Sequence record: NC_048170.1
Direction: 5' to 3' (one strand)
From: Escherichia phage vB_EcoM_Goslar
Length of the DNA: 64,000 nucleotides
Part shown: in pieces, positions 4,815-61,444 of the stretch
Position numbering within the stretch: position 1 is the stretch's first letter
Layout: every line of letters begins with the position of its first letter
Notes under the pieces: generated by a model
The model's input: the letters and a program-made list of their open reading frames with translations, nothing else
The model's database searches: none
Told to the model about the DNA's origin: nothing
Translations under genes and position numbers: made by a program

Positions 4815-4845
4815 ACGGATATAAAAAAAAATAACACATAGTTAA

Positions 4846-4880
4846 CCTTCTCCCCAACCCGATGAGGGAAGGGGAGAAGG
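4846..4880. terminator. GC-rich hairpin, bidirectional terminator candidate (ccttctcccc/ggggagaagg)
   Basis: Perfect 10-bp stem between convergent genes; A9 run at 4822..4830 gives a T-run after the hairpin on the minus strand. Confidence 0.6.
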
Positions 4881-4897
4881 GCTATGCGCTATTTAAT

Positions 4898-5173
4898 TTA
4901 TTTCGAGGTTAACCACGATTCAATTGTGGTGAGTTTGCTTCTCAGTACGCGCCAACTAGGGTGTGGTGGGATCACAGCGCCATTGTCGATTACGGTTAGC
5001 TGAACCTGGTACTTCTGTTGCATACGTGCTACCGTGTCGCTTATCGAGAGGAAAAGCTGGTAACGTTCATATGCCGTCAGTTCACTGTCCTGTTGAACTG
5101 CGTTGGCTGCTAACGTAATTTCGCGTAAGTCCTTTGCATCCACAGAGACGGTAATGAGTTTATATTGACTCAT
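4898..5173 (-). CDS. hypothetical protein (91 aa)
   Basis: ORF track; ATG with AAGGAAAC upstream. Confidence 0.55.
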   Translation of the reverse strand: MSQYKLITVSVDAKDLREITLAANAVQQDSELTAYERYQLFLSISDTVARMQQKYQVQLTVIDNGAVIPPHPSWRVLRSKLTTIESWLTSK

Positions 5174-5234
5174 ACGGTTTCCTTATCAACTGGGGTATTG
5201 CAAATACAATACCCGTCGTCGGACGATAAGTTAA

Positions 5235-7793
5235 TTACTGCTCTTCACGTTCCAGCAGATACTCGGAAGCGGTAATACCGTTTACCGTACGTACTGCTTT
5301 CAGACGAGTATCATCACTCAGAATCACGGTAACAGATTGCAGACCTTTTACTTTGGTTTCGAAGGTCTTGAACACCTGATCCAGCATACGAGCAATGCTT
5401 GGGTTGGTTGCAGCCGATGCGTGGGTGTAACCGCTTTGGTTCAGCTTCAGAATCTTGGCGTTGGTCGGTACGCGAACAACAACATGCGGACGCATCGCGA
5501 ATACGCTGTGATTGAACCAGTAAGCGTCGTTACTATCTTCGTCGGTAACGATGTCTGGATTAACACGCATATCCTCGACAGCCGCATCCGCCAAACGACG
5601 TTCGATTTCATCGGCGTCCAGAGAGCCATCTTTCTCCAGTTCTGCACGATACTCACTCATGGCAACCAGATGACGTTCACGATTCGCTGCGGATTTTTCG
5701 TGAGCGGCTTTCAGGTAGTCATGCATGTTGTACAGTTCTGCCATGGAAAGACGAATGTTCCACTGACCTTCGCCATCGCGATTGCAGTAGAGACACTTCA
5801 GCATGTTGACCCAGGTATAGTAGCAATTGGCGAATTCATCTTCAATGAACTTCTGGTCCATTTTAAGATCGTGAATCAGCCAACCGGACAGTTCTCCGAT
5901 ATCATCAACGAAGCTAGAGATGGTGGTTTCAGAGAAGTTCTTCGGTACGATACGTTTGATCAGCTTATTGACGTCTTTGGTCATGCTATCGTTCAGGAAA
6001 TGCCAGATACGCAGAGGAATGACATCTCGATACTGTTGCATGATCTGACGATAAGCTTTGATATCGTCGCTACGACCTTTATCAATAGACAACGCATCCA
6101 GGAATTCATGGATTGCATCCAGCTCTTTGTCGGTATAGGTTCCCAGATAGGAATTGACGGTGGCCAGGAATGCTAATGCGTCGTTTTGGTTGACGTCGGT
6201 GTTGGTCTGCTGAATGATCGCCACTGCAGCTTTAGTTTCAGCATCCTCAACGCTTGACGCTGCGATCGCGTCGGTGACGGTAAACAGTTTCATTTCGCGC
6301 TGCTCACCGACAACGATTGGCTCACGCTGAACCGGCTTGTTAAGACTAACGCGAACAACTTCTGCTTGCGCGATACGATCCAGTTTTGCCATTTCCTGCT
6401 CTGCCATACGACGAGCGGTTGGATCTGATTCAAGTTCGATGTATTCCACTTCTTCCTCCGTGAGGGATGTAATGTCAACAATGGTTTCATGAAGAATTCC
6501 GTTTTCGTCGATACGTGCTCGACGAGCGAAGTGCCTGAAGTCATACAACGTCGGCCAACGACTATTAGGTGCAAAGTCTTTGGCTTTCAGACGCATCTGC
6601 ATAAATTCTTCATGTTGAACAACACGACCGTAACGCTTAGCATCTTCGGTCGCATCAATTGGATTAACGGTCTTTGTTGCCGTAGCGGAACGAGCCGTAC
6701 GAACCGGTTCCGGTTTCACCTGCGCCGGTTCAGGTTGAACGGGTTTCTGCTGTCCAGCCTTAACATGCCATTCTGGCTCTTCGTACTGTTCAGCAAATTG
6801 CTCAGCCGCTGCAAAGATATCGTTGATACCACCAATATCTCCTTCAGGATTTGTCGAGTAAATCCGTGGTTGCGGTGCCTCGTAACGCGGCGCTGTAGCA
6901 GCAGGTGCCTCATCAACGATAGGATCATCATCACCGACATCATACAAACGGTTGAACGCACAATCCTTCGAATCAATGTACGATGGTGTTTGTGGTTGGA
7001 CAACCGTAGGCCGAGGTTGTGTGCCGTATCCTGGTGTTGTTGGAGCCATACCACGCATAACTGCTGGGTTAGGTTGGTATTGTGGTTGTGGGTAGGTTCC
7101 ACCATACATGGCGTACGCAGGCTGTTGTGGTTGACCATACCCGTTGCTAACCATCGCACTTGCTTGCGGCCCACGATAAGTCATCCCCATCTGCATCACC
7201 TGCTGCTTCAAACCACGTGACTTCTGCGCGATTTGCGCTAGGCTTCCGCTTTTATTCAGCTGCGTGTACTTATTCGCGGCTTCCGGGTTAATGCGTGATA
7301 ATTCAATCGCGCGATAATATTCCGGGTACTGATTCGGTTCAAAGAGCCACGTTACAAGATGATACAGCGCAACTGTACTCACGGCAGCAGAGACGATCTG
7401 GTCGTCGGACGCGTTCTGTGGCATCGGGTTGATGTAAGAGAACACGTTCCAACAACAGTCTTCAACAAGCGATTCCATCATCATATCGTTATTGGTATAA
7501 CGTGCGACGAACTCGGTTTGTATTTTGTCTTGCTGAGCGAAGTCTTTCAGGACATTAAAGATGGCTTGACGGATTTTGACGATCGTCGCTTCTTGGGTGA
7601 TGAAGTTATAGTTCTGCTGATATGAGGGTTGTTGGTATTGTGGTGGTTGATAGGCGTTATTCGGGTATGCGCCGTACGGCGATTGCTGATACTGTTGCTG
7701 ACGAACCTGTTCAGCCGCATAATTAATCGTGCTCGTATAAGGGTTTTCGCTATAGCCCATTTGTTGATACATGTTGTTACTGCCATTATACAT
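5235..7793 (-). CDS. hypothetical protein (852 aa) with Q/Y/P-rich low-complexity N-terminus
   Basis: ORF track; ATG with AAAGGA upstream; N-terminal about 60 aa dominated by Q, Y, P, N; second QPQY-rich stretch mid-protein. Confidence 0.8.
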   Translation of the reverse strand: MYNGSNNMYQQMGYSENPYTSTINYAAEQVRQQQYQQSPYGAYPNNAYQPPQYQQPSYQQNYNFITQEATIVKIRQAIFNVLKDFAQQDKIQTEFVARYTNNDMMMESLVEDCCWNVFSYINPMPQNASDDQIVSAAVSTVALYHLVTWLFEPNQYPEYYRAIELSRINPEAANKYTQLNKSGSLAQIAQKSRGLKQQVMQMGMTYRGPQASAMVSNGYGQPQQPAYAMYGGTYPQPQYQPNPAVMRGMAPTTPGYGTQPRPTVVQPQTPSYIDSKDCAFNRLYDVGDDDPIVDEAPAATAPRYEAPQPRIYSTNPEGDIGGINDIFAAAEQFAEQYEEPEWHVKAGQQKPVQPEPAQVKPEPVRTARSATATKTVNPIDATEDAKRYGRVVQHEEFMQMRLKAKDFAPNSRWPTLYDFRHFARRARIDENGILHETIVDITSLTEEEVEYIELESDPTARRMAEQEMAKLDRIAQAEVVRVSLNKPVQREPIVVGEQREMKLFTVTDAIAASSVEDAETKAAVAIIQQTNTDVNQNDALAFLATVNSYLGTYTDKELDAIHEFLDALSIDKGRSDDIKAYRQIMQQYRDVIPLRIWHFLNDSMTKDVNKLIKRIVPKNFSETTISSFVDDIGELSGWLIHDLKMDQKFIEDEFANCYYTWVNMLKCLYCNRDGEGQWNIRLSMAELYNMHDYLKAAHEKSAANRERHLVAMSEYRAELEKDGSLDADEIERRLADAAVEDMRVNPDIVTDEDSNDAYWFNHSVFAMRPHVVVRVPTNAKILKLNQSGYTHASAATNPSIARMLDQVFKTFETKVKGLQSVTVILSDDTRLKAVRTVNGITASEYLLEREEQ

Positions 7794-7827
7794 TTCTTAC
7801 GATCCTTTTTATTTATTCGGTTATGTG

Positions 7828-9624
7828 TCAATCGATTATGTCGCGATCGTTAATTTCTACAATTTCTTCATCGAATCGACCGACGTCTTTCTTCAAGCCT
7901 GCATTGGTTGCTGCAACGTCATTTGCAATTTGTGGGGTAATGATTAACCGACCGCGCTCATCGATAGGTGCGTACATACTGAACTTCTGACGTCCGGTTG
8001 GTTCGGAGTGTGGAAGATTCAGATAGCTTGCACAGAACGGGATGGAACCACTAACCAAACGACTCTCGTCAGCCAATGCAGCACCGCCTGCGTTTTGGCT
8101 CTGGAGAACAACATGCGTGCTCACTTTGAACAGCATGCAATCACCAGGTGACTGAATCGATGTTGCCACTTTCTCACGTTTATCACGATTGCTCTGGATA
8201 TTGAGAATCGCTTCCGTTGCAACTTGATTTCGCAACGCCTTCTGTACATCGCGATTGGTCATCTCTTTACGGTTGTTCTGTCGTTTACCACGTTCTGTGG
8301 TTTTAAGATGGAACCCCAGTTTAAAGATGCTCTTACGCACATCCTCCATGACATATTCCAACACCATCAATTCCTTACCGAACATCGTCGTGGTATCAAC
8401 ACGACTCATTTCGATAGTGACATTGTCAATCAGATACGCCATAAATTCGTAGAAGTCGTCGCAAGGAATATTTTCCTGTTTGAACTTCTTCTGTTGAATC
8501 TCGTCAACGTAAAGATCGAGACTGTCGATGTGGTGGTTTACATCACGCAACAAACGCGCATCCGCATTGTTGTTATTAAAGATAATCAAACCGAGTAATG
8601 TACGCCAATGGTCTGGCGCATTCGCGAACTCCTCAACCGGATAGTCTTCCGGAAAACGATCGTAATAACGGTCGATGAGATACAAGAATGCACCGACAAG
8701 GCCAAGAACAATACGTTCCGTGCCTCCACGTCTTACAGCAATTTGAATATCAGGATGTTTGTAACGTACAGCGCTAGCGCTACGGCTTTTACCGCTTTTG
8801 CTGATACTAAAGCCTTTAGGAATAACCCCCATGGTGCGATAGATTACCCATTGGTCACGCGGAAAATCACGTTCAGCAAGGTTCCGTCCGGTTACGGCTT
8901 CGACACCTGCAAAACGTCGGAAACACTCACCCACCCCGTACTTCGCAAAGAGATAGTGACCCAGTGTGGTTACGCTGGTGTGGTTGATGTTGTCACCGTT
9001 CACTTTACTTTGTTTAGTAAGATGATAGATTTGCGACCAGGGTAATGACAGGTAATGACGATAATCGATACCGGTCGGTGTATCATTGCTCAGGAACTGA
9101 TACGGTGTACGTTTAACCGTGATTTTGTCACGCGGAAGCATGATGAACGCCATGTCTTTCGTGTAACTGATTACGGGGTCAGCGAGTACCGCACTGAGAA
9201 TGAAGTTCGCACCACGTAGACGCATTTTACCACCCTGACCTACCGCGGGCAATAGGAGAGGATGTCGGATAATGCAGTAGTCCTTTCCTGGTTCACGACG
9301 GTCACCTGATTCCATCGCGCCGTACCAGCGGAATTCCAGCATCACCATAAACACATCGGAAGGCGCAAGGTCGAAGGTCAGCTTACCGCTATCCTTCCCT
9401 TTGGTTTTCTTTCCTCCGCTTAAGTAGTGGAACTGTTCGCGGGCCATACAACGACGCAGGCCATGATACACCAGATCCTTAGGTAAACTATCTTTGCTGT
9501 TCCGCCAAAGACGATCAACATAGGACTCAACATCTTGCATCTTATCGACGACGATGTTGCGTGCTATCTTCTCGTTCATCTTCGGTGCAAGCTCAGCGAC
9601 AGCTTTGCAGAATCTAGGATCCAT
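7828..9624 (-). CDS. hypothetical protein (about 598 aa)
   Basis: ORF track frame; track start 9627 is GTG, adjacent ATG at 9624 has AAGGAG 6 nt upstream. Confidence 0.8.
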   Translation of the reverse strand: MDPRFCKAVAELAPKMNEKIARNIVVDKMQDVESYVDRLWRNSKDSLPKDLVYHGLRRCMAREQFHYLSGGKKTKGKDSGKLTFDLAPSDVFMVMLEFRWYGAMESGDRREPGKDYCIIRHPLLLPAVGQGGKMRLRGANFILSAVLADPVISYTKDMAFIMLPRDKITVKRTPYQFLSNDTPTGIDYRHYLSLPWSQIYHLTKQSKVNGDNINHTSVTTLGHYLFAKYGVGECFRRFAGVEAVTGRNLAERDFPRDQWVIYRTMGVIPKGFSISKSGKSRSASAVRYKHPDIQIAVRRGGTERIVLGLVGAFLYLIDRYYDRFPEDYPVEEFANAPDHWRTLLGLIIFNNNNADARLLRDVNHHIDSLDLYVDEIQQKKFKQENIPCDDFYEFMAYLIDNVTIEMSRVDTTTMFGKELMVLEYVMEDVRKSIFKLGFHLKTTERGKRQNNRKEMTNRDVQKALRNQVATEAILNIQSNRDKREKVATSIQSPGDCMLFKVSTHVVLQSQNAGGAALADESRLVSGSIPFCASYLNLPHSEPTGRQKFSMYAPIDERGRLIITPQIANDVAATNAGLKKDVGRFDEEIVEINDRDIID

Positions 9625-9663
9625 CACACACTCCTTTCAGAAAGTTGCTTAAGCAGATTAAAG

Positions 9664-11100
9664 TTACTTTTTCGATGACGCCTTCTCAAGAATCTTGAAA
9701 AAGGTCATACCTATACCGACAACAGCCGCGGTTATACTCGCAGCGGCTTTCCAAACATCGACGTTACGTTGACGTCGCGCTTCTTCCGCTTCACGTTGTC
9801 TTTTTGCCTCTTCATCACGTCGACGTATCTCAGCCGCAAACTCGTCATGCTTACGTTTGGCTTCTTCGTCTCGACGACGAAGTTCAGCGACGAATTCTTC
9901 ATGTTTGCGTTTAGCCTCGTCGTCACGACGTTTTAAATCAGCTTGATAATCTTCGTGTATTTGTCTACGTAGATCATCTTGACGTTTCATTTCGGCTTGG
10001 TGTTGTTCCATCCTACGTTTTTGTTCGTCTTTAAGCTGATCGAGTTCGGCTTTATGTTGTTCATCACGCAGCTTTGCGTCGGCGCGATGCGCCTCATGCA
10101 TCTGTGCGATAACTGCCTTGTGTTCATCCGCCATACGTCGCATTTCAGCCATCACCCCTTTAAGGGTTTCTTCTGATGCCTTACGTTCGTAGCTACGTTG
10201 GTCGAAATCATTTTTGTAGGCTTCTTTTTGGATGGGGTCGCGCCAATGCAATGCCGATTCACGCGTCGGAAAAACATTGTACTTCCACATCTCTTTTTCC
10301 AAATCTTCGACCGGTACGAAGACGGAGTCATTATTCCCGAAGGTAACCAACATACCTGGCGCGCCTGCTCCATTCGTTGGTTTTATTTCGAACGCTTTCC
10401 CCAACACGTTAACCCATAAGCTATACGGATTATGAAAGTCGGGCGGCGTCCAATGGATAGTGAGTTGCGTTCCGAGAATCCGGAAACCCTCTGTTTTTCC
10501 CGTCAAGCTCCGCGCGCACGTTGCGATGTAGGGGTGATCAATCCCTTTCGTAACGTGGTCTGCGCTTTTGTATTCTCCTTTAACTTTTACGATTGCCACG
10601 TTGATTTGCGCGACATAAGCGGGTTGATTAAAGTTCAACGTGTTGAGGTCAATTTGACATATTTCATCCAGCGTATCGTACCAGTCTTGCTGGTCTAATA
10701 GACGCGGCATTTTCTCTGTGTTAACAATACGACGGATATGCGGTTTCCTTATCGCGTAACCTGTGCCGTTTTTAACACGGAGTATATCCCGACGTCTACC
10801 CGCGTAGACGAAGTTTCTGAATGCACCATTCGCATTAGATACGTCATGGCTGTCAACTATTACAGGACTACGAAATTTTGAACGTCGTACGATCCTGAAT
10901 GTATTGCCGTCCTCAACCCTACCAGGAATGTACTGGAACATATTGTCGGAGGTGATAACCAACACGGTATGGCCAGATTCATTAATACATGCCCATCCTA
11001 ATTCCAGGTCATATAACGGTTCAGCATAACCGTCAATGCGATATGCGTGCGTACCATCCCACGGTTCGAACGCAGTATCACATATTGGCATGGAGGGCAT
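9664..11100 (-). CDS. hypothetical protein with charged tandem-repeat helix and C-terminal transmembrane anchor
   Basis: ORF track frame; track start is TTG, ATG at 11100 has GGAGG 6 nt upstream; three 18-aa repeats (RRRDEEAKRKH-EF-AE); hydrophobic segment AAASITAAVVGIGMTFF then KK at C-terminus. Confidence 0.8.
   Translation of the reverse strand: MPSMPICDTAFEPWDGTHAYRIDGYAEPLYDLELGWACINESGHTVLVITSDNMFQYIPGRVEDGNTFRIVRRSKFRSPVIVDSHDVSNANGAFRNFVYAGRRRDILRVKNGTGYAIRKPHIRRIVNTEKMPRLLDQQDWYDTLDEICQIDLNTLNFNQPAYVAQINVAIVKVKGEYKSADHVTKGIDHPYIATCARSLTGKTEGFRILGTQLTIHWTPPDFHNPYSLWVNVLGKAFEIKPTNGAGAPGMLVTFGNNDSVFVPVEDLEKEMWKYNVFPTRESALHWRDPIQKEAYKNDFDQRSYERKASEETLKGVMAEMRRMADEHKAVIAQMHEAHRADAKLRDEQHKAELDQLKDEQKRRMEQHQAEMKRQDDLRRQIHEDYQADLKRRDDEAKRKHEEFVAELRRRDEEAKRKHDEFAAEIRRRDEEAKRQREAEEARRQRNVDVWKAAASITAAVVGIGMTFFKILEKASSKK
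9775..9936 (-). repeat. 3 x 54-nt in-frame tandem repeat encoding the charged 18-aa repeats
   Basis: Direct codon-by-codon reading of 9664..9940; repeat units 9775..9828, 9829..9882, 9883..9936. Confidence 0.8.
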
Positions 11101-11253
11101 CGTCAACCTCCATCAGATTGAAAACTATCACGCATAATACATTTCCCTTTTTCTTGTTCTTATCAAGCCGACAGCCGACGGTTTCAGCATCGTTCCTAGC
11201 GCGAGAACGACCTTACGTGTTGTCTATGCCTTATTCATCGCAGGCGTCTGTCA

Positions 11254-11280
11254 CCTAGGTAATGTAAGCGTCAAATTTTT
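11254..11280. promoter_or_regulatory. copy of conserved intergenic motif cctaggtaatgta (candidate promoter element for gene starting at 11100)
   Basis: Shares ctaggtaatgta core with copies at 17721 and 54693; lies between a hairpin and the next minus-strand gene. Confidence 0.35.
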
Positions 11281-11309
11281 TCTATTCGCAACGATAAACG
11301 GCATAGAAA

Positions 11310-11339
11310 CCTCCCCCAACCCTTACGGGCTGAGGGAGG
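11310..11339. terminator. GC-rich hairpin (cctccc ... gggagg) downstream of major structural gene
   Basis: Inverted repeat with inner ccc-ttac-ggg; about 100 nt 3' of stop at 11439 on minus strand. Confidence 0.5.
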
Positions 11340-11438
11340 CTGACTTATGTATCACGGTGCCGGATGAATGTCCGGTGCAATGAAACCATCTGCAACGTTG
11401 TCATCAAGAATATCATCCAACGAAGCAGCTACGGTAGT

Positions 11439-13661
11439 TCAGTTAGTCTGAACCGGCAGCTTGATGTTTTCAGTGTAGACCTTACGCAGGTTCACAACGT
11501 TAATCAGACCCAGCAGCGGGCAGTTGTTAACGAAGCGGCAGCGCGGCTGAACCATGGTTTCTTTAGAAACCTGACCGTTACGGGTAACCTGAGCAACAGA
11601 TACCAGTTCCGGTACATACAGGAACATACCGAAGGTCAGCGGATCCGGAGAACCCTGGATACCACGAGACAGGGTCACGAAGATCTTATCGCGCAGCATG
11701 ACGTTCGGGTTATCTACAACCACGAAGTTGAAGCTTACACCAACGGTACGGAAATCGCCATCGGTCTGCAGGAACTGCGGGATGTAGTTGTCAGTTGCTA
11801 CTACGCAACGCGGTTTCTCATCAGCGTTGGAAGACAGCAGCTGCAGAGCTGGCTGATAACCAGACTCGGAGTACATGCGGTATGCCATCTCACGAATCAC
11901 GTTCATGATCGCAGCAGACACTTCAGCACGACGTTCTGCAGTGGTGGTACCCTGAACAGATTTCTCCAGGTCCAGATTGATTTCTTCGAACCACGGACGG
12001 ATCAGGTAACGACCGAAACCTTCGATCTGGATGTCACCGAACTGACGGAAGCGAGAGGTCGCAACCGCTTTCAGTGCGTCTTTGTAGCTGAACAGTTTCT
12101 CAACCATCAGGTTGTCGAAACGTGCGTTAGCAGCTTGGATCAGAACGTCCAGGTCAGCAGCGTTTTCTTCCCAATCCAGCGGACGAGGAATGGAGAACGG
12201 AGCCAGCAGGCCGATTGCGTAACGTTCTTGCTTCATGTTGAAGTCAAGGTGCTTACCGCGCTCACGACGGTTGCTGTTGTTACGACGGATACGCAGTTCG
12301 TAACCAACCAGTTTGAAGCTCAGGTCTTCAGCCAGTTGTTTGAACTCTTCGCTCTTACGCGGTTGTTCGATGTTGTCCTGATCAACCAGGCGATACAGTT
12401 CAGCGTTAGCGCCGTTAACACGCAGACCCGCTTTCTCTACGTTGGAAGAACCGTAAACTTCGATCGCCAGCTGAGCAGCGGATTTCGCATCGATGATGTC
12501 CTGCAGCGCTTCGGCTTTCGCACCTTTAACGTCTTTGGTGTTCTCATCAACGAAGATGGAGTGGGTGTCGAACGCCAGGGTCATTTTGCGGAAGTCGCCT
12601 TCCAGGGATTTCTGGAAACCGTTGGTGATCAGACCAGATACGTCGAACGGTACGTAAGAGGTTTTGCTGTGCTTGGTAGATTTGATTTCCACCAGGATTT
12701 TGGTCAGCGTGATCTGAGCATCCAGCGCGTCGGTGTTGTCGCTGTAACCGTTAGCCAGAATGCTGTCGTCTTCAGCGATACCGATCATGTCGATCAGTTT
12801 ATCAACAGCCAGGTAAGACGTTTTATAAGTTACGCCTTTAATTTCGATGTCGCGCGGAGCAACGATAGCTTTGTCAACGAAGTACTGCGCGTTAGCATCG
12901 TCAGCACGATAGATCGGATGCAGATCGGTCACGTCGTTGGACAGAACGTCGTTATACATGAACGCATCCAGCAGCGGACGACGTACCCAATCAGCCGGAG
13001 TACCGTCAGCGTTACGACGCAGGTGGTTGAACACCAGCGGACGACGGAAAGATACGTCGTAACCGATCTGGTTCGGAGCCAGAACGATGGTGTTGTACAG
13101 TTCGTTACCCATGCGGCTCAGACGAGAAGCCTTCACGTTGAACACGACGGAGTACGGCATCATGTCACGCAGTTCTTTCTGGTCGTAGGACAGCTGAACC
13201 AGTTCTTCAGATTCGCAACCGCAGGAATCAGCAGCCATCATGACGAAGTTAGAGCTGTCAACTTCACGACCTGACGGAGTGGTGCTGATGTTCATGGAAC
13301 GTGCTTGTTTAGCATATTCTACCGGGTTGCCATGAGCCAGCATGATCAGTGCTGCTGCACGAGCCTGCTGTGCGTTCATGGTGAACAGCTGTTCTTCAAT
13401 ACGCTGCTTCTCTTCCGGAGTGGTGGTTTCGAAGCCCAGCAAGGTCAGAACCGGTTCTTCGGCTTTACGGATGTCGCTGCTGAAGCTCTTAACATCCATT
13501 TCGTTAACCAGTTTGTCCATGGATTTGAAATCAACCTTAGAAGCAGATTCCATAGACAGGAAGGTGTTCTCCAGACCTTTGTCTGCTGGTTTGCTACCAT
13601 TAGCGGTCAGGAACTGGCGAGTGGCCGCGACCTGTTGGCTAAGAAGGGTTTTATCATTCAT
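11439..13661 (-). CDS. major virion structural protein, putative major capsid protein (740 aa); tail sheath is the alternative
   Basis: ORF track; ATG with AAGGA 8 nt upstream; strongly optimised codon usage (CTG, CGT, GGT, AAC, TTC, GAA) unlike neighbours; size matches phiKZ-type capsid proteins (recalled, not searched); 149-nt leader. Confidence 0.6.
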   Translation of the reverse strand: MNDKTLLSQQVAATRQFLTANGSKPADKGLENTFLSMESASKVDFKSMDKLVNEMDVKSFSSDIRKAEEPVLTLLGFETTTPEEKQRIEEQLFTMNAQQARAAALIMLAHGNPVEYAKQARSMNISTTPSGREVDSSNFVMMAADSCGCESEELVQLSYDQKELRDMMPYSVVFNVKASRLSRMGNELYNTIVLAPNQIGYDVSFRRPLVFNHLRRNADGTPADWVRRPLLDAFMYNDVLSNDVTDLHPIYRADDANAQYFVDKAIVAPRDIEIKGVTYKTSYLAVDKLIDMIGIAEDDSILANGYSDNTDALDAQITLTKILVEIKSTKHSKTSYVPFDVSGLITNGFQKSLEGDFRKMTLAFDTHSIFVDENTKDVKGAKAEALQDIIDAKSAAQLAIEVYGSSNVEKAGLRVNGANAELYRLVDQDNIEQPRKSEEFKQLAEDLSFKLVGYELRIRRNNSNRRERGKHLDFNMKQERYAIGLLAPFSIPRPLDWEENAADLDVLIQAANARFDNLMVEKLFSYKDALKAVATSRFRQFGDIQIEGFGRYLIRPWFEEINLDLEKSVQGTTTAERRAEVSAAIMNVIREMAYRMYSESGYQPALQLLSSNADEKPRCVVATDNYIPQFLQTDGDFRTVGVSFNFVVVDNPNVMLRDKIFVTLSRGIQGSPDPLTFGMFLYVPELVSVAQVTRNGQVSKETMVQPRCRFVNNCPLLGLINVVNLRKVYTENIKLPVQTN

Positions 13662-16106: not shown

Positions 16107-16138
16107 CCCTCCTCCAACCCGTAAGGGAAGGAGGAGGG
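16107..16138. terminator. GC-rich hairpin ccctcctcc-aa-ccc-GTAA-ggg-aa-ggaggaggg, bidirectional terminator candidate
   Basis: Perfect stems with GNRA-type loop between convergent genes; A9 run at 16087..16095 gives a T-run for the minus-strand transcript. Confidence 0.65.
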
Positions 16139-16154
16139 GTTATGACCGCTTTGA

Positions 16155-16481
16155 TTAACTTATTGTCATGAATTCATTAGGTGAAAATTTCCAGCCGTTC
16201 TCAGTGAGAAGCGTGTTGAGTTTCGCTGCAACGATAAGCCATGCATGCATGGCCGTTACATCGTATTGGCGATTCACTCGACGTTGGTTTTCGATATTGA
16301 TTTGCTCCTGTTCAGTGATGTTTGGATAAAGTGCGATAGCGCTAGGTTTACCCAGCGCGCTAGTCATCACCGCAGTACATTCACTGATAATGTTGTTTAA
16401 GTGGTAGTTATACACCGTTCCACGCATGACGCGATGACGGCATTCGATAATAGCGTCGTAAATGATTTCTCGAGTAATCAT
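16155..16481 (-). CDS. hypothetical protein (108 aa)
   Basis: ORF track; ATG start; no clear SD. Confidence 0.55.
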   Translation of the reverse strand: MITREIIYDAIIECRHRVMRGTVYNYHLNNIISECTAVMTSALGKPSAIALYPNITEQEQINIENQRRVNRQYDVTAMHAWLIVAAKLNTLLTENGWKFSPNEFMTIS

Positions 16482-16487
16482 GATAAT

Positions 16488-16889
16488 TTAAAACATACGG
16501 TCGTTTTTAGCACGGGCGTCCATTACCAGATCGTAGATGCCTGCGGTTCGTAAGCACTCTTCGTAGTAACGATGCGCGCCTTCATCAGCCATCCACGATA
16601 ACCCTCGGCTATCCGCAACGATAACCAGTTTGTTATTGTTGAACGCACACACCACACGGTAGGTCGCGTTGTTATTCGGATCGCGAGTGATAAGTTCGTA
16701 AACGCCGTTAACAGGTTTACTGAATTCACCGTTTAACGGGATGAGTTCGGTAGTACCTTCAGCAAACGTTACGTTGATCGGTGATGGGTCTTTAGCGATA
16801 ACAGTATATTCCACATTGTGTTCTTTACTGGTCATGATACCGAAGTAAGAACTCACAGGGGAACGCGGTACACTAAGAATATTAAACAT
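16488..16889 (-). CDS. hypothetical protein (133 aa)
   Basis: ORF track; ATG with AAGAGGA upstream. Confidence 0.65.
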   Translation of the reverse strand: MFNILSVPRSPVSSYFGIMTSKEHNVEYTVIAKDPSPINVTFAEGTTELIPLNGEFSKPVNGVYELITRDPNNNATYRVVCAFNNNKLVIVADSRGLSWMADEGAHRYYEECLRTAGIYDLVMDARAKNDRMF

Positions 16890-16943
16890 GGATGTTGTCC
16901 TCTTAATTGGATTTAGATTGTTGGGTATGGATTGGGAAATGAA

Positions 16944-17513
16944 TTAGACGATGAGTGACCAGGTGGTAAGCACCCCGCTTGCGAATTCGAGCTTAAGACG
17001 TTTACCGATAAGTTGTTGTTGGATCATCTTCTCGGTGATGCGTCGATCTTGCTGAACCGCTTTATCAAACGCTTCTTTTGCTTCAGCTTGGTAGAAGTTC
17101 GTTTCTTCGTTGTCGTCGATCTCTTCGAGAGTATCGTCGTCGATGTCGGCAAGTTTCACTCGACCGTTTTCATCAGGTTGTTCTGCAGGTTCATTGTCAT
17201 ACGGCGTGTCTTTTGTTGGTGCGACACGATGTTGCAACTCGACCTGTGTTAACATGATCTCCATCTCACCATCGATAGGAATGATTTCATCGGCGCTGCC
17301 GTTTTCGGTTAGCTCTCGACTTTCCAGTAATGTCGTGGTAACAGAGAACACCTCTTCAACAGGAACCTCGTCATCGTCGATGGTGTTAACCGTGTTGCTG
17401 GTAACTTCGGCAACGACCATCAAATCAAATGCGTGAGGGTCACCTGGCATTTTGATTCCTGGAAGTTTGTTGAGGTACCAAGGATCAAGAATCATGATTT
17501 CTGGATTAAACAT
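16944..17513 (-). CDS. hypothetical acidic protein (189 aa)
   Basis: ORF track; ATG with AGAAAGGT upstream; D/E-rich. Confidence 0.65.
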   Translation of the reverse strand: MFNPEIMILDPWYLNKLPGIKMPGDPHAFDLMVVAEVTSNTVNTIDDDEVPVEEVFSVTTTLLESRELTENGSADEIIPIDGEMEIMLTQVELQHRVAPTKDTPYDNEPAEQPDENGRVKLADIDDDTLEEIDDNEETNFYQAEAKEAFDKAVQQDRRITEKMIQQQLIGKRLKLEFASGVLTTWSLIV

Positions 17514-17720
17514 CGTATTTTTACCTTTCTATGTTAGGTGGATTGCGGATAGAAGAATCAATGCATAGATTGATCGTTCTATGTTAGAAATTATTGCCGA
17601 ACTGGTTATGGTTATAACGCGTGTTTTCGTATTCTGACGGGTCGCGTATTAATAAGGTCATGACTGTATCCTCGATTATTAAGAGAAATTTACAACGATA
17701 ACAGTAACCGCTGTTATCAT

Positions 17721-17748
17721 CTAGGTAATGTAGTCGCGAAATAAACTG
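17721..17748. promoter_or_regulatory. conserved 28-bp intergenic motif ctaggtaatgtagtcgcgaaataaactg (copy 1)
   Basis: 26/28 identical to 54694..54721; both lie about 25 nt from a hairpin, upstream of the next minus-strand gene. Confidence 0.4.
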
Positions 17749-17775
17749 GAGTAATGCGAAATAAGACAGCATAAG

Positions 17776-17807
17776 CCCTCTCCCAACCCGTAAGGGAAGG
17801 GAGAGGG
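17776..17807. terminator. GC-rich hairpin ccctctccc-aa-ccc-GTAA-ggg-aa-gggagaggg
   Basis: Perfect stems, GNRA loop; 5 nt 3' of stop of gene 17812..19179. Confidence 0.6.
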
Positions 17808-17811
17808 AATA

Positions 17812-19179
17812 TTAAACGGTTGGACGAACGGTGTTGTCTTTTTCTGGTGCAAGCCATAACGTGACCGTACCATGGCATGTCCACTGTGGTTCACGTACAG
17901 AAGAACCTGCCATCGTAACAGCACAATCGGTACGCATGATAACCCCGTATGCTTCGCAGAGATTGTTATCCTGCATCCACACAACTTTAGCAGGCATGCC
18001 GGGATACAACAAATCCATGTTTGCGTATTCCCACACCAACTGCATTGTTCTACCGCGTAATCCAGCAGTATTGCTTAATTCACGCCATCGGTTATCGGTT
18101 ACGCGTCCCATCCCTTTCGCCACCTTCACGTTATCGCCACGTTCTTCAGTTACGTACTCGCTAACGTTTACAGTACGACTGATTATTGTATCGCCCCCTT
18201 TTGATAACGTCATTCCCTGGCTCATCTGACTTGCCGAAACAAAACGCCCACCCGCATTACCTAACAACGAAGCCGCGTTATTGATGTCGCTTACCGACGC
18301 CCCTCTCGTACATGCAATTTCCACGTATTTGTCACGATTGATCCAGGTCTTGTCCATGCCCGGAAACATATCGGCAGGATAGTTGTAAAAGATAGCCGTG
18401 CGCCGACCATCAGAAAAACGGGTTTCGTCATAGAGAGGATAAATATACAGATACGGAGATTGATAATAACAACCGACGTCCGCTGAATAAATACCGACCT
18501 GGTTCTGGATTTTGTCTACGAGATCCATTGCGTTGGTACCGTGCGGAAGAATAAGCAACTTGAACAGGTTGTCGTTATTCGGTGCAACAATATCCACACC
18601 CTGCATTTTGAATCCGGTGTCAGCTTCAACCGCAGAAAGTATCTTGCTGAATTCGAGCCGTAACACATCCAGCACTTTCGACCCGGTATAGTTCTCACCG
18701 GTTTCTGATTGCATGAAGCTTTCAAGAACAGGATCGAACAGTTGAAATTGAAGGTCGACCATTTGTTCGTAGTCTTTCTTCGAAGAATCGGTTGCGGTAC
18801 GTTCGTCGGTAGCAGACATACGACTGTCTACGGTTGTTAAACAAACCGCCCGGTAGACATAAGCCTGTGTGGCATCGTCTACGGTTTGGCGTTGTCCACG
18901 CATCAGGCTGTACGCCTGCACGATGATGCGCATTTTAAGTTGTTGTTGGTACGGTAGAATGTATTTTCCGTAACTGCCGGGCGGGAACTTTACAGAGATA
19001 TAAAGTTCATCTCCTGCGTTACGTTCATAGTCTCGATACGTGTGGACTTGAGTCACTAAAGGAACAGACACCGTCATTGACGGCGTGATTAATTCCGCGG
19101 TGACTTTATACGCAACAGCAACTGCTTCCTGCGCAAATGTACCGATATACCGTCCTAACGGCGTCTGTTTGTAATCCAT
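17812..19179 (-). CDS. hypothetical virion protein (455 aa)
   Basis: ORF track; ATG start. Confidence 0.8.
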   Translation of the reverse strand: MDYKQTPLGRYIGTFAQEAVAVAYKVTAELITPSMTVSVPLVTQVHTYRDYERNAGDELYISVKFPPGSYGKYILPYQQQLKMRIIVQAYSLMRGQRQTVDDATQAYVYRAVCLTTVDSRMSATDERTATDSSKKDYEQMVDLQFQLFDPVLESFMQSETGENYTGSKVLDVLRLEFSKILSAVEADTGFKMQGVDIVAPNNDNLFKLLILPHGTNAMDLVDKIQNQVGIYSADVGCYYQSPYLYIYPLYDETRFSDGRRTAIFYNYPADMFPGMDKTWINRDKYVEIACTRGASVSDINNAASLLGNAGGRFVSASQMSQGMTLSKGGDTIISRTVNVSEYVTEERGDNVKVAKGMGRVTDNRWRELSNTAGLRGRTMQLVWEYANMDLLYPGMPAKVVWMQDNNLCEAYGVIMRTDCAVTMAGSSVREPQWTCHGTVTLWLAPEKDNTVRPTV

Positions 19180-23028: not shown

Positions 23029-23080
23029 CGCAGATTCCTGTTTGAAAGATAAGATATCACATGATGGTCGACAGCATAAA

Positions 23081-23100
23081 GCCCACCCCGAAGGGCGGGC
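23081..23100. terminator. GC-rich hairpin gcccaccc-cgaa-gggcgggc flanked by gcataaa / tttatgc arms
   Basis: Inverted repeat 3' of stop of gene 23117..26494; outer arms are also reverse complements. Confidence 0.5.
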
Positions 23101-28901: not shown

Positions 28902-29008
28902 TTGGGACTCCTACGTAGGAAAATCTTGGCGGGTGATCATGTCCGCCATTTACCTTCTGAACCGTTGATTCAGAAGTCAAAAGATAACCGGATACCAACG
29001 CCATAAAA

Positions 29009-29040
29009 CCTTCCTCCAACCCGTAAGGGAAGGAGGAAGG
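29009..29040. terminator. GC-rich hairpin ccttcctcc-aa-ccc-GTAA-ggg-aa-ggaggaagg
   Basis: Perfect stems; 3' of stop of gene 29051..30340. Confidence 0.6.
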
Positions 29041-31666: not shown

Positions 31667-31714
31667 GTGTTGTCTCCAGTAATGATTCAAAAGATAAACC
31701 TGAGCGGCATAGAA

Positions 31715-31746
31715 CCCTCTCCCAACCCGTGAGGGAAGGGAGAGGG
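31715..31746. terminator. GC-rich hairpin ccctctccc-aa-ccc-GTGA-ggg-aa-gggagaggg
   Basis: Perfect stems with GNRA loop; 3' of stop of gene 31769..33091; followed on minus strand by ggttctatgccg. Confidence 0.6.
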
Positions 31747-31768
31747 AATATGTCAGTTTATTAACTGA

Positions 31769-39968: not shown

Positions 39969-39989
39969 AACAAAATAGCGTGAGCATAA

Positions 39990-40021
39990 CCCTCCTCCAA
40001 CCCGTAAGGGAAGGAGGAGGG
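39990..40021. terminator. GC-rich hairpin ccctcctcc-aa-ccc-GTAA-ggg-aa-ggaggaggg, bidirectional terminator candidate
   Basis: Perfect stems between convergent genes 36975..39968 (+) and 40031..42823 (-). Confidence 0.6.
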
Positions 40022-40030
40022 AATATGCTG

Positions 40031-52361: not shown

Positions 52362-52364
52362 ATA

Positions 52365-52398
52365 GCCCTTCCCCGGCCTTGACGGCTAGGGAAGGGGC
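52365..52398. terminator. imperfect GC-rich hairpin gcccttcccc ... gggaaggggc
   Basis: Inverted repeat with one shifted base; 3' of stop of gene 52424..52909. Confidence 0.45.
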
Positions 52399-52423
52399 TA
52401 GGTACGTTATTTATGCTTCATTA

Positions 52424-52909
52424 TCAACCAGAGATGTTGCACGTTTCTTCTTCGTCGAGTGCGTACTCCATTGTGTAGAATTCATAACCATCGGAAAACT
52501 TGAGTGTTACTGTAATAGGGAAATCGCACGGCATAGCTGATTTCTTAAATGCGTTATTAGCAACATCAGCCAACCGACGTATAGCATCAGTCCCGCTGAC
52601 ACTGAATGGTAGTTGTATGTTGATAAGGATGCGGTGCTTGTAAACATAGAAAACAACGGTGCTGTCAAGATAAACGCTATGGAACGGTATTGTTGGGATG
52701 CGTTCCACGATGGTAAAATACGTCCCATCAATATCACTATTTCCCACTGACCACTTATCGGATTTGCGTAGATTTTCTTTGAGGAATTCGACGCTTCGAG
52801 TGACAGCCTCAGTAGTAGGTGCGACGTATGCGTCTTTATGCGTGTCGAAAAGTTCGTTGACGTTAGATTTGAATGAATACGCTGTTGCCATTTTGATAAC
52901 ACCGGTCAT
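52424..52909 (-). CDS. small hypothetical protein (161 aa), tandem paralog
   Basis: ORF track; C-terminal FPITVTLKFSDGYEFYTMEYALDEEE resembles C-terminus of gene 52952..53443. Confidence 0.65.
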   Translation of the reverse strand: MTGVIKMATAYSFKSNVNELFDTHKDAYVAPTTEAVTRSVEFLKENLRKSDKWSVGNSDIDGTYFTIVERIPTIPFHSVYLDSTVVFYVYKHRILINIQLPFSVSGTDAIRRLADVANNAFKKSAMPCDFPITVTLKFSDGYEFYTMEYALDEEETCNISG

Positions 52910-52951
52910 GTTTAATTGATGAGTATTCCATCTAGTAAGGGAATACGTTAT

Positions 52952-53443
52952 TTAGCTATCGATCTCGCCATCTTCAGGATGGTAGTGGAATTCGAATAGC
53001 CCTGAACCATCGTGCCCGCTGATTGTTAATGTAACAGGCATATCGAATCCTCGTACGCGTTTATGAAAACACTCCGCTAACTTACGTTCAGCGTAATCTA
53101 CTATTTCATCGGTTGCTTCGACGCCACCTGTTACGCTGAGCGTGATATCGATACTAATGATGTTATCATGCAACGCAAACCGCCAACGATCGATACGATT
53201 ATTATCTTCAGCAGGCGTCTCGTTTACAAGATAGATTTTATCGTCAGCTGACAAAGCGGGACTCCAGCAACGTTCGTTTATTAATTTCGCCTGGAGTTTT
53301 AGTATCGTCTGATCAATAATATCCCAACACGTAACCAGCGTGACGTCAGGCACTGAATTGAGAAGGGCGAGCACTTTATCCTTTATTTTAAGTGCTTCCG
53401 CAGGACGCCCGCAAATACCATGCATTTCAACTTTCTTATCCAT
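52952..53443 (-). CDS. small hypothetical protein (about 163 aa), tandem paralog
   Basis: ORF track frame; track start is GTG, ATG at 53443; C-terminal MPVTLTISGHDGSGLFEFHYHPEDGE. Confidence 0.65.
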   Translation of the reverse strand: MDKKVEMHGICGRPAEALKIKDKVLALLNSVPDVTLVTCWDIIDQTILKLQAKLINERCWSPALSADDKIYLVNETPAEDNNRIDRWRFALHDNIISIDITLSVTGGVEATDEIVDYAERKLAECFHKRVRGFDMPVTLTISGHDGSGLFEFHYHPEDGEIDS

Positions 53444-53495
53444 ATTCACTTCTTCACTTCTTTCTTAATCTAAATGTTAGTTGGGGATGGGATGC

Positions 53496-54098
53496 TTACA
53501 TGCTTTCTAACATATCGATGATCATGGAACCCATACCGAAACTCGGTCTCTCGCCGATGTACTCAGCAAGCTGACGATGAACGTCTTTTGGATTTCCTTC
53601 TTCACCGTCGGCATCGATGTAGACCGAAAAAGAAAATGAATCGGAATCCACGCTGATAACCAGACGGCGTTCATTGCGTTCCTTGAGTGTATCGACAATA
53701 GCCGCTTTCAGTACCGCGATCGCATTCATCGCGTGCAAGATGTCTCCATCGGGTTTCGGTAGATCGATCTTTTCTTTCAGGTCGATATTGATGTTGGTTA
53801 CAATTGGATTGAGGTCGACCTTGACATAATCGTTAGGGAAAACGCGAATAATTGCACGATCGATATCTGAACCGTAAAAGTCAACACGTGGCTTTAACAC
53901 TTCTTTGTTTGGATCCATGTTTTCATCCATCCCGGCCTGCAAGAAACGTTCTACGTTATCCAGTTCACGATAAACTGACGCTTCGATTTCTTTCAGATAG
54001 TTGGCTGCGGTTTCATGTTCTTTACGCAGCTCGTCTTTAAGGAGCTGTACGGTGACTTCACTAGAACGAATGCTGTTCGCGAATTGGGTAATTGACAT
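53496..54098 (-). CDS. small hypothetical protein (about 200 aa), possible paralog
   Basis: ORF track frame; track start is TTG, ATG at 54098 has AAGGAA 6 nt upstream; C-terminal RRLVISVDSDSFSFSVYIDADGEEG. Confidence 0.65.
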   Translation of the reverse strand: MSITQFANSIRSSEVTVQLLKDELRKEHETAANYLKEIEASVYRELDNVERFLQAGMDENMDPNKEVLKPRVDFYGSDIDRAIIRVFPNDYVKVDLNPIVTNINIDLKEKIDLPKPDGDILHAMNAIAVLKAAIVDTLKERNERRLVISVDSDSFSFSVYIDADGEEGNPKDVHRQLAEYIGERPSFGMGSMIIDMLESM

Positions 54099-54154
54099 AT
54101 CGAATTCCTTAAATTCTCTTGAGTTCAATTAATGATGAAAAGCTGTAAAAAAAA

Positions 54155-54172
54155 GGTGGGGCGAACCCCACC
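54155..54172. terminator. intrinsic terminator for minus-strand gene 54197..54622 (ggtggggcgaaccccacc plus T8 run)
   Basis: 7-bp GC stem with 4-nt loop, followed on the minus strand by 8 T (plus-strand A8 at 54147..54154). Confidence 0.75.
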
Positions 54173-54196
54173 AAAACGTCAGACACACGCAGAAAA

Positions 54197-54622
54197 TCAA
54201 TTCAGTGATGCATATAACGCATAACGACTGTAGATCTCAACCGCCGGTCCGTTATGCGTTAACAGACCATCCCGGTTGTAATACTGGAAAAATGAATAAC
54301 GTTTGTCGAAGTGATAAACAAAAGCAATGTCTTTGCCGTCAAAACCTGTGATGCGTGGTCTGTTTTTATCTAACAATGCTTTGACTTTTAACAGTGTTGC
54401 CGCACGTGCTTTAACGTTAGGGATTAATCCATCACAGTCGATATAAACGGTGTAACCTGTTTCAGATGTTGCGACGGTTGTATTACGATTGACGCGGAAG
54501 ATTTTTGTTTCGTATGTACTATCTTCAAGAATTGGGTTTTGTTTTTCGTATTTTCGTTTACGTAGAAATTCTACAACGGTGATATAGTTAGCGGTAATAT
54601 GCCCGGTTATAGCTTGTAACAT
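54197..54622 (-). CDS. small hypothetical protein (141 aa)
   Basis: ORF track; ATG start; classic terminator downstream. Confidence 0.65.
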   Translation of the reverse strand: MLQAITGHITANYITVVEFLRKRKYEKQNPILEDSTYETKIFRVNRNTTVATSETGYTVYIDCDGLIPNVKARAATLLKVKALLDKNRPRITGFDGKDIAFVYHFDKRYSFFQYYNRDGLLTHNGPAVEIYSRYALYASLN

Positions 54623-54692
54623 CTCGACATCCTTTTATATTGGATTGATTGCAATTGTCTTAAATAGATGATAAGATATTTTGCTCTTATCA

Positions 54693-54721
54693 CTAAGGTA
54701 ATGTAGTCGTGAAATAAACTG
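54693..54721. promoter_or_regulatory. conserved 28-bp intergenic motif ctaaggtaatgtagtcgtgaaataaactg (copy 2)
   Basis: 26/28 identical to 17721..17748; about 70 nt upstream of ATG 54622 on minus strand. Confidence 0.4.
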
Positions 54722-54750
54722 CGTTAACAAGAAATAAAAACAGCATAGAA

Positions 54751-54790
54751 CCCTCCTCCCCCATCCTTCAAGAGGACGGTGGGAAGAGGG
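54751..54790. terminator. imperfect GC-rich hairpin ccctcctccc ... gggaagaggg
   Basis: Inverted repeat 3' of stop of gene 54798..55199. Confidence 0.45.
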
Positions 54791-54797
54791 AGAGAGA

Positions 54798-55199
54798 TTA
54801 AATGTCGTGGACGGCATTGCCGTTTAACCAGCAATACAGTTTAACGCGACAGGAATACCGCTTCGTTGCAGCAACCATTTCATCGCGTAAACGCTGGTAG
54901 ATTTCATCCTGGTGTTCACGTTCAATGGGGTAATCAGCCCAACATTCGATCATGACGTCACCATTAGTCAGAATCGTCGTACGCATCCTGTCCTGGACAC
55001 GACGATCTTTCCCAGCATTAGGGAAATACATCCCTTCAGTACGAATAAGGTCGCCGCAGGGCATGACTAACCATTCGTTCGTTTTGCCGGTATTCTTATA
55101 ATCCATTACAGCTTGCATTGCGGTGTCAACGCTAAAAGAAACATAATTCCAAACGGATGTCCAACGATAGATTGCGGGTTGTTCGAGTGTTTCGTTCAT
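54798..55199 (-). CDS. small hypothetical protein (133 aa)
   Basis: ORF track; ATG with AGGAAAAG upstream. Confidence 0.65.
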   Translation of the reverse strand: MNETLEQPAIYRWTSVWNYVSFSVDTAMQAVMDYKNTGKTNEWLVMPCGDLIRTEGMYFPNAGKDRRVQDRMRTTILTNGDVMIECWADYPIEREHQDEIYQRLRDEMVAATKRYSCRVKLYCWLNGNAVHDI

Positions 55200-61428: not shown

Positions 61429-61444
61429 TGCAACGGTAACATAA

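Follow-up and report, generated by a model that had tools for sequence, protein, structure and literature searches.

We analysed a repeated intergenic module in a 64,000-nucleotide stretch of the genome of Escherichia phage vB_EcoM_Goslar (NC_048170.1); this whole stretch is called the window below, and all positions are counted from its first letter. The module, first noticed at 17721-17810, joins a GC-rich hairpin to a conserved motif of 28 nucleotides (nt), and a reading made from the letters alone (the sequence-only reading) had described two long copies and a degenerate third one. The coordinates of both long copies were borne out: the 29-nt pattern of that reading matches 17720-17748 with 3 mismatches and 54693-54721 with none, and the repeat is beyond chance, since none of 100 shuffled sequences matched the pattern. 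The near-identity of the long copies holds for the ungapped stretch AGGTAATGTAGTCG(C/T)GAAATAAACTG, which is identical at 24 of 25 positions, whereas the 'cta(g/a)gg' end of the described repeat requires a 1-nt shift. The short core AGGTAATGTA is also found at 11257, in copy 3. All three copies are intergenic, and every gene flanking them lies on the minus strand. Read on that strand, each copy opens with a stop codon and a strong GC hairpin; next come the YTATGYYGT tail, some 30 nt of spacer, the motif and a short stem-loop, and last a ribosome-binding site (RBS) and an ATG. The parts are as follows (the scores out of 20 count the specified positions of the pattern TTTSRSGNNTAYATTACYTNNNTGA).

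17776..17807, minus strand: copy 1 hairpin, CCCTCTCCC-TT-CCC-TTAC-GGG-TT-GGGAGAGGG (-27.4 kcal/mol, z -4.9)
17766..17775, minus strand: copy 1 tail, CTTATGCTGT, TATG at 17773->17770, exact match to YTTATKYYGT
17717..17741, minus strand: copy 1 predicted promoter, TTTCGCGACTACATTACCTAGATGA, core TACATTAC at 17732->17725, predicted +1 G at 17718 (20/20)
17697..17718, minus strand: copy 1 5' stem-loop, GATAACAG-CGGTTA-CTGTTATC, starting at the predicted +1 (-9.5 kcal/mol, z -3.5)
54751..54790, minus strand: copy 2 hairpin, unlike that of copy 1 in sequence (-31.4 kcal/mol, z -4.3)
54740..54750, minus strand: copy 2 tail, TTCTATGCTGT, TATG at 54747->54744
54690..54714, minus strand: copy 2 predicted promoter, TTTCACGACTACATTACCTTAGTGA, core at 54705->54698, predicted +1 G at 54691 (20/20)
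54670..54691, minus strand: copy 2 5' stem-loop, GATAAGA-GCAAAATA-TCTTATC, starting at the predicted +1 (-7.6 kcal/mol, z -9.3)
11308..11341, minus strand: copy 3 hairpin, downstream of the capsid gene (-31.5 kcal/mol, z -5.0)
11298..11307, minus strand: copy 3 tail, TCTATGCCGT, TATG at 11305->11302
11251..11275, minus strand: copy 3 predicted promoter, AAAAAA-TTTGACGCTTACATTACCTAGGTGA, core at 11266->11259, predicted +1 G at 11252 (20/20)

The distance from stop codon to hairpin is 4, 8 and 97 nt in copies 1, 2 and 3, respectively (in copy 2, the stop is the TAA of the gene at 54798-55199). Copies 1 and 2 agree at 81% of positions between TATG and the predicted +1 (76% in the spacer), and copy 3 differs from both in the spacer alone (55% identical). 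Given the shared spacer, copies 1 and 2 are, as far as the alignment tells, duplicates of the whole cassette. Copy 3 is not degenerate where it matters: 11251-11275 agrees with TTTSRSGNNTAYATTACYTNNNTGA at 20 of 20 specified positions, and by this comparison it matches the promoter in full and resembles phiKZ more closely than either of the other copies does. Taken as a whole, the module is very probably a phiKZ-type terminator followed by an adjacent, separable early promoter of the phiKZ type, both on the minus strand.

Candidate terminators

Mapping of 3' ends in phiKZ (Putzeys et al.) found 61 terminators that share BCCYCCCCHWWDGGGRRGGBYTTATKYYGT, a stem-loop followed by TTAT (PMC10914365), and 201phi2-1 has a similar terminator motif (PMC11512511). 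The terminator-promoter cassette that the sequence-only reading had proposed agrees with these data, as hairpin and tail fit the phiKZ terminator motif (PMC10914365) and the spacing of the motif equals that of phiKZ early sites. The tails TCTATGCTGT (copy 2) and TCTATGCCGT (copy 3) are each one base off YTTATKYYGT; the tail pattern GGGNNYTATGYYGT has 9 sites in the window (1.5 expected), and the full phiKZ consensus is found once within 3 mismatches (23071-23100; none expected by chance). Like the terminators of phiKZ and 201phi2-1, those of the window have C-rich and G-rich arms and the YTTATKYYGT tail, occur in many near-identical copies and are in some cases bidirectional; unlike them, the hairpins of the window are mostly longer and have a stem in two tiers (CCCTCTCCC-TT-CCC-loop-GGG-TT-GGGAGAGGG). 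We predict that hairpin and tail belong to a conserved phiKZ-type family of intrinsic terminators. A simple terminator scan of the window did not flag the module hairpins, because they have no plain T run.

The hairpin with its TATG is not specific to the module: about 12 further intergenic hairpins in the window have the same stem type and a TATG tail and no 28-nt motif. Their positions, together with those of the hairpins closest to copy 1, are:

~4850, 16120, 23085, 29020, 31730, 40005, 51270, 52390, 55270 and 61460: motif-free hairpins with a TATG tail
~16107-16138, 29006-29040, 31707-31755, 39985-40026 and 61443-61476: hairpins near-identical to that of copy 1

Many of the terminator hairpins are symmetric (CATA-hairpin-TATG), so that both strands read as hairpin plus TATG (4840/4883, 23078/23105, 31711/31749, 39988/40024, 55250/55288 and 61443/61479); the symmetric form sits at convergent gene pairs and, in places, between tandem genes. 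The hairpin at ~52370-52420 has the tail CTATATG, whose ATG (52359-52362, minus strand) is the listed start of the open reading frame (ORF) 51885-52361, so a predicted terminator tail would here overlap the start of the next gene.

The TATG of the tail invites comparison with the phiKZ late promoter, which is 5'-TATG-3' with G as +1, bound by gp123 (PMC7598289, PMC12809450), the motif spanning -3 to +1 (PMC7598289). TATG follows each of the three cassette hairpins by 2-4 nt, and a gp123 homologue is encoded in the window. TATG occurs 342 times in the window, too often to be diagnostic; both strands retain the tail at convergent gene pairs (4840/4883, 39988/40024 and 61443/61479), where a promoter would give antisense RNA only; and the model late promoter of phiKZ, p119L, has no upstream hairpin, unlike the TATG tails of the window. 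For these three reasons the tail is better explained as part of the terminator. It could also serve as a late start for the non-virion RNA polymerase (nvRNAP), giving early plus late expression; AR9 genes that stay active all through infection are preceded by an early as well as a late promoter (PMC5312081).

The predicted early promoter

In these phages an early promoter is a conserved AT-rich element of some 10 nt whose centre lies near -10, and the transcript starts 6 nt past it (PMC5312081, PMC7598289); and in phiKZ and 201phi2-1 their conservation reaches the -20 and -30 regions (PMC11512511). The motif of the window lineage is TTTSRSG-N2-TACATTAC-N6-G, and the phiKZ early promoter is TATATTAC-N6-G. 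With the G taken as +1, TTTSRSG lies at -23 to -17 and TACATTAC at -14 to -7, and A/T-rich sequence lies farther upstream.

Scoring the window against TTTSRSGNNTAYATTACYTNNNTGA gave exactly three sites at 20/20, all intergenic and co-oriented, and none at 16-19 (shuffled sequences give 0.75 sites at 16 or more); the same gap was seen in 162 kb of loci from close relatives, with nothing at 16-19. Two contigs in IMG/VR, one of 237.5 kb (IMGVR_UViG_3300011560_000001) and one of 182.9 kb, share 90-98% identity with the window across long stretches. Using TTTSRSGNNTAYATTACYTNNNTGA, with the G as part of the search pattern, we found 35 matches in IMG/VR, including 9 in the 237.5-kb relative (a count that comes from this strict pattern), 7 in the 182.9-kb relative and 11 on other contigs of 214-276 kb, one of which is Serratia phage 2050HW. 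An exact scan of IMG/VR with a 14-nt core had returned scattered chance matches only, and longer or degenerate patterns were used instead. Of 36 distinct sites, 32 are followed on their own strand by an RBS and an ORF at a distance of 25-165 nt; most sites sit in stop-free spans of fewer than 100 amino acids (aa).

The dominant core among the sites of the relatives is TATATTAC, and TACATTAC is a variant with T changed to C at position 3. The orthologues of copy 2 at the relatives' loci L161 and L183 read TATATTAC, and both variants occur in the same relative genome; the sites orthologous to copy 1 are conserved at L114 and L118. As a sequence pattern, G stands exactly 6 nt past the core in all window copies and in 13 of 13 sites each in phiKZ and 2050HW.

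A more distant parallel is AR9, whose early motif is AAATATATATTAT-(6N)-G (PMC5312081). Its early promoters are AT-rich near -10 with a 6-nt spacer and a G start and are used by an injected multisubunit polymerase, as is predicted for those of the window; they are sharply defined and tolerate few deviations (PMC5312081), which the all-or-none scores of the window fit. AR9 differs in its core (TATATTAT vs TAYATTAC here), in its uracil-containing genome and in belonging to a distant lineage.

TTGACG in copy 3 resembles a -35 hexamer and could point to a host sigma-70 promoter. Its spacing to any -10-like hexamer is wrong, a consensus scan flagged no site at the module (6 sites in the region vs 15 expected), and transcription in phiKZ-type phages is independent of the host polymerase (PMC7598289). 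A chance repeat is opposed by the failure of all 100 shuffles to match and by the recurrence of the motif on many jumbo-phage contigs. The sigma-70 scan and the shuffles exclude both explanations, and the chance we would give to the two together is negligible.

Comparison with phiKZ and Serratia phage 2050HW

Judged from its genes, the window phage is a phiKZ-like jumbo phage. The landmark genes used in the comparison are:

11439-13661, minus strand: major capsid protein gene (Pfam PhiKZ_MCP, PF25620, 5e-218)
7828-9627, minus strand: gp123-like nvRNAP subunit (PDB 7ogp_E, PHIKZ123, 5.8e-41; tblastn 7e-53; phrog_2943)
56077-57378, minus strand: gp80 homologue, subunit of the virion RNA polymerase (vRNAP) (tblastn, 30.7% identity over 446 aa, 4e-45)
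17812-19179, minus strand: gene of a 455-aa virion protein, with its TAA stop 4 nt before the copy 1 hairpin

Homologues of both the virion and the non-virion multisubunit RNA polymerases (gp80-like and gp123-like) are thus encoded in the window, and the gene order DnaB-like, capsid, gp122-, gp123- and gp124-like equals that of phiKZ gp118-gp124. The capsid protein has a best match of about 34% identity in the cultured-phage collection, and megablast of the copy 1 locus against cultured phages gave no match, as did megablast of locus L177. A search with the 455-aa protein for more distant relatives returned the two close relatives only, hence no graded conservation footprint. The close relatives also have a gp55 homologue, and homologues of gp68, gp71, gp73 and gp74 are found on more distant motif-bearing contigs.

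The sequence-only reading had likened the TACATTAC core to the phiKZ early promoter, and the likeness is supported by a survey of the first 150 kb of the phiKZ genome: 13 of 21 TATATTAC occurrences stand in an -N5-TG context, all on the plus strand upstream of genes, within the wider context TTTAANNN-TATATTAC. These sites include those of PHIKZ054 (80 nt upstream), gp68 (57984) and gp121 (120657), and the early-promoter motif has been reported at the primary start site of PHIKZ054 (PMC8244752). In the complete 2050HW genome, all 13 TATATTAC-N5-TG sites are on the plus strand, in gaps between annotated genes and 40-130 nt ahead of a plus-strand gene; the sole other TATATTAC and all nine TACATTAC are intragenic and lack the promoter context. 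The predicted promoters of the window share with phiKZ early promoters the core at -14 to -7, the 6-nt spacing to a G, the TTT nine nt upstream and A/T-rich sequence farther up, and are likewise strictly intergenic, co-oriented with the downstream gene and sometimes directly behind a terminator tail. They differ in the -20 element (TTTC(A/G)(C/G)G in the window copies vs TTTAA(A/G)N in phiKZ), in flanks richer in G+C and in the C at core position 3.

The closest correspondence is at copy 3. The gap between gp120 (capsid) and gp121 of phiKZ reads GCCCTCCCTTCGGGGAGGGC-TTTATGTTGT-ATTACATT-AAAAAAAGTTTAAGATC-TATATTAC-AGTAATGA, a hairpin-TTTATG-TATATTAC arrangement that aligns element by element (hairpin, tail, core) with copy 3, and the sites at window copy 3, phiKZ 120657 and 2050HW 38672 share one location, with the capsid gene on one side and the gp123 operon on the other. 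In relatives, the motif stands upstream of a homologue of ChmA (gp54), which is followed by a gp55 homologue (loci L168, L193 and L191); the distance to ChmA is 66 nt in the close relatives and 72 nt at L191. The gp68 homologue has the motif 32 nt upstream in 2050HW (locus entry L190), matching the phiKZ site at 57984. Depending on the phage, the motif precedes gp123-, gp55-, gp68- and gp71-like genes. Core, spacing and genomic positions of the presumed vRNAP promoters are therefore conserved from phiKZ through the Serratia phage to the window lineage, whose capsids are about 30% identical.

These correspondences also bear on whether the motif is a promoter or regulator site of another temporal class, either a middle promoter used by a form of the nvRNAP or an operator for a phage transcription factor. 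The timing is assigned by analogy, the window copies, with their C at core position 3, stand apart from the TATATTAC sites, and they lie among late structural genes, all of which would suit such a site. The middle motif of phiKZ, a TACT centred near -22 with A-rich sequence before it (PMC8244752), and its late motif (PMC7598289) are, however, unlike the motif described here, whose core, spacing and position match the phiKZ TATATTAC sites, including the one at PHIKZ054 (an early motif, PMC8244752); moreover, TACATTAC and TATATTAC interchange at one locus in close relatives. We therefore regard a different temporal class as highly improbable.

Proposed mechanism and points against it

The analysis establishes the sequences of the copies, their number, place and strand, the gene homologies and the correspondence of position with phiKZ and 2050HW. 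From homology in sequence and position, we infer that transcription stops at the hairpin and starts at the G, early, by the vRNAP. The GC-rich hairpin with its YTATGYYGT tail would end the upstream transcription unit; the vRNAP, injected with the virion and including the gp80 homologue (56077-57378), would recognise the motif right after infection and start at the G; and the transcript would usually open with a short stem-loop, with the RBS and the start codon 25-165 nt later. Copy 3 would drive the operon with the gp123-like subunit of the second, non-virion polymerase, and copies 1 and 2 would drive small genes with no assigned function. The promoter reading is supported by gene logic, because at least some nvRNAP genes have to be served by the injected polymerase, and the motif stands ahead of such genes.

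Several points weigh against this reading. In 201phi2-1, an early promoter stands directly ahead of only some nvRNAP genes (PMC11512511), so the gene logic is supportive and not compelling. Start site, timing and polymerase are assigned by analogy. All window copies have C at core position 3, where phiKZ and 2050HW use only TATATTAC in promoter context, and a single deviation can abolish an AR9 early promoter (PMC5312081); the variant TACATTAC may thus be weaker or differently timed. This worry is eased by the presence of both variants in one relative genome and by copy 2 being TATATTAC at L161 and L183. About 9 strict sites were found in the 237-kb relative, compared with about 30 reported for phiKZ. 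Finally, the search pattern was derived from the window, so that conservation at the specified positions is partly ascertainment; the flanks, the position, and phiKZ and 2050HW give support independent of this.

The sequence-only reading had treated hairpin and motif as one 90-bp module. They do adjoin at three loci, and the unit is not obligatory: in the 237.5-kb relative, 6 of 9 promoter sites have no hairpin within 60 nt upstream, and together with the many hairpins that lack the motif (most of them) this indicates that hairpin and motif are independent signals. They adjoin where a motif-bearing operon succeeds another transcription unit of the same direction.

The module is an ordinary regulatory element, well explained, and it leaves current understanding unchanged. 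Its use lies in prediction: with the promoter rule TTTSRSG-N2-TAYATTAC-N6-G and the terminator rule, early operons become predictable from sequence in this nucleus-forming-type lineage, such as the window's operon with the gp123-like polymerase subunit and, in the relatives, that of ChmA/gp55. The deep conservation of the promoter also constrains how the poorly understood virion polymerase recognises DNA. Concrete, testable leads are that TACATTAC and TATATTAC replace one another at one locus, that a stem-loop stands at +1 and that there may be shuffling like that of PeSLs (promoter-early stem-loops, composites of terminator stem-loop and early promoter in T4-type phages).

Stem-loop at the predicted transcript start

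In copies 1 and 2, a stem-loop starts at the predicted +1, and the L161 orthologue of copy 2 keeps the stem and changes the loop (GATAAGA-CATCGGGT-TCTTATC). Over 29 non-redundant sites (in the window and at loci L114-L202), the opening 30 nt of predicted transcripts are more structured, with a mean z of -1.43, as compared to about 0 in control windows at -120, +120 and +200 (paired Wilcoxon p <=9e-4). The stem begins exactly at +1 in 14 of the 29 sites and at the start or within 4 nt of it in 19. The tendency is found in 2050HW (z -1.50) and is not present in phiKZ (z -0.35).

A stem-loop after the motif, with stems kept and loops varied in the orthologues, could also mean that the repeat works as RNA (a small RNA, a 5' leader element or a processing site) and not as a DNA promoter. 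In the conserved 25 nt there is neither internal pairing nor covariation; structure is found past this block, in variable sequence, as one would expect of a transcript start; the motif is strictly co-oriented with the downstream gene at a variable distance (25-165 nt); and a search of the whole window against Rfam gave no match at gathering score. We find an RNA-level element barely credible.

Genes and indels around the cassettes

The genes that would be served by the three predicted promoters are:

16155..17513, minus strand: genes of 189, 133 and 108 aa downstream of copy 1, no family match, ending at the hairpin ~16107-16138
52424..54622, minus strand: genes of 141, 210, 165 and 161 aa downstream of copy 2, no family match, with the next hairpin at ~52370-52420
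4898..11100, minus strand: 478-aa gene, gp123-like gene, 852-aa and 91-aa genes downstream of copy 3, ending at the hairpin ~4840-4885
17584..17661, minus strand: 25-codon relic ORF, MTLLIRDPSEYENTRYNHNQFGNNF, with its own GAGGA RBS; also in L118

For the small genes after copies 1 and 2, searches with PHROGs, Pfam and local BLAST found no function. The ORFs 17584..17772 and 54635..54817, which had been dismissed as translation artefacts of the repeat, both render the promoter as LLQFISRLHYL and extend through the terminator region. Neither is conserved in relatives that are 95-98% identical, and we therefore agree that they are artefacts, except for the last 25 codons of the first, which are a gene relic. 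Where the window has this relic, the same promoter is followed in L114 (10391-12668, minus strand) by three paralogues (263, 286 and 148 aa) that share a C-terminal region (29-43% identical), and the 25 codons are, on this comparison, a remnant of the three-gene array.

At locus 1, an extra gene of about 210 aa lies between the upstream stop and the hairpin in L114 (12823-13456, minus strand) and L118 (~1623-2273), and at locus 2 an extra 151-aa gene lies at the same place in L161 (3488-3943, minus strand) and L183 (~3828-4290). Both genes are missing from the window, and they are unrelated to each other. L161 and L183 also have, at locus 2, a hairpin of the copy 1 type in place of the differing one of the window. 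Altogether 3 of about 5 large indels abut cassettes 1 and 2, although the events are few. At 4363-4440 of L183, in the 237.5-kb relative, the promoter is followed by a 45-nt insert with two perfect hairpins (CCTTAGTGA/TCACTAAGG and GCGTTTTGTT/AACAAAACGC) and then by a second promoter 3' end, CCTAGGTGATAAGAGC; from its sequence, this insert looks like a recombination scar inside the promoter.

Such rearrangements recall the PeSLs of T4-type phages (PMC2839356, PMC4122927), which are likewise small repeated stem-loop/promoter composites with gene-sized indels at their edges between close relatives. The T4 PeSLs carry early promoters of the host sigma-70 type, whereas the window modules have predicted vRNAP promoters in a phage that is not T4-like, and here stem-loop and promoter also occur apart; the likeness is thus one of functional analogy, not of membership. 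A tentative and somewhat doubtful proposal combines two roles, a cap-like 5' structure of early mRNAs (for example a stabilising one) for the +1 stem-loop and a PeSL-like mobile cassette for the ~100-nt unit, by which small early genes would be gained, lost and swapped.

The repeats might instead be mainly recombination cassettes or scars in the manner of the T4 PeSLs, adding to promoter function or replacing it. The similarity of copies 1 and 2 from TATG to +1 (81%, with the spacer at 76% vs 55% to copy 3), the swapped hairpin type at the copy 2 locus in L161 and L183, the gene-sized indels next to the cassettes (~210 aa in L114/L118, three genes in L114, 151 aa in L161/L183) and the L183 insert with its repeated CCTAGGTGATAAGAGC would all fit this. 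Indels must, however, fall between genes, where terminators and promoters sit, so that adjacency is expected, and only about 5 events are at hand; the unit is not obligatory, given the 6 of 9 hairpin-free promoter sites in the relative and the many promoter-free hairpins; and recent copying cannot explain a core, a spacing and a position conserved to phiKZ and 2050HW. Recombination is possible as an added role and unlikely as a replacement for promoter function, and as the main explanation of the repeats we consider it improbable. The terminator with an adjacent early promoter remains our preferred reading.

Other features of the window and its relatives

No tRNAs were found in the window. At L188 10673-10770 (IMGVR_UViG_3300024259_000010, 236 kb), a tRNA-like sequence, GTAGCTCAGCAGGTCAGAGCA...GGTTCGAGTCCCG, lies within about 10 nt after the promoter motif, and this may be a tRNA under an early promoter.

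Within the 1125-aa ORF 23117-26494 (minus strand), about 550 bp (24354-24898) cannot be aligned with L165, although the flanks are 92-94% identical; by this alignment, 24354-24898 is a replaced segment in a large protein without an assigned family.

Beside 47690-49189 (region 49258-50923, plus strand), a 403-aa ORF of the HNH type and an ORF-poor stretch of 819 bp come after a DNA polymerase fragment (phrog_3011). The Rfam Group I intron model RF00028 is covered in full at 50405-50923, with 44.7 bits (below the gathering score of 50) and E = 6.7e-10. The region may contain an intron and a homing endonuclease beside a split polymerase gene.

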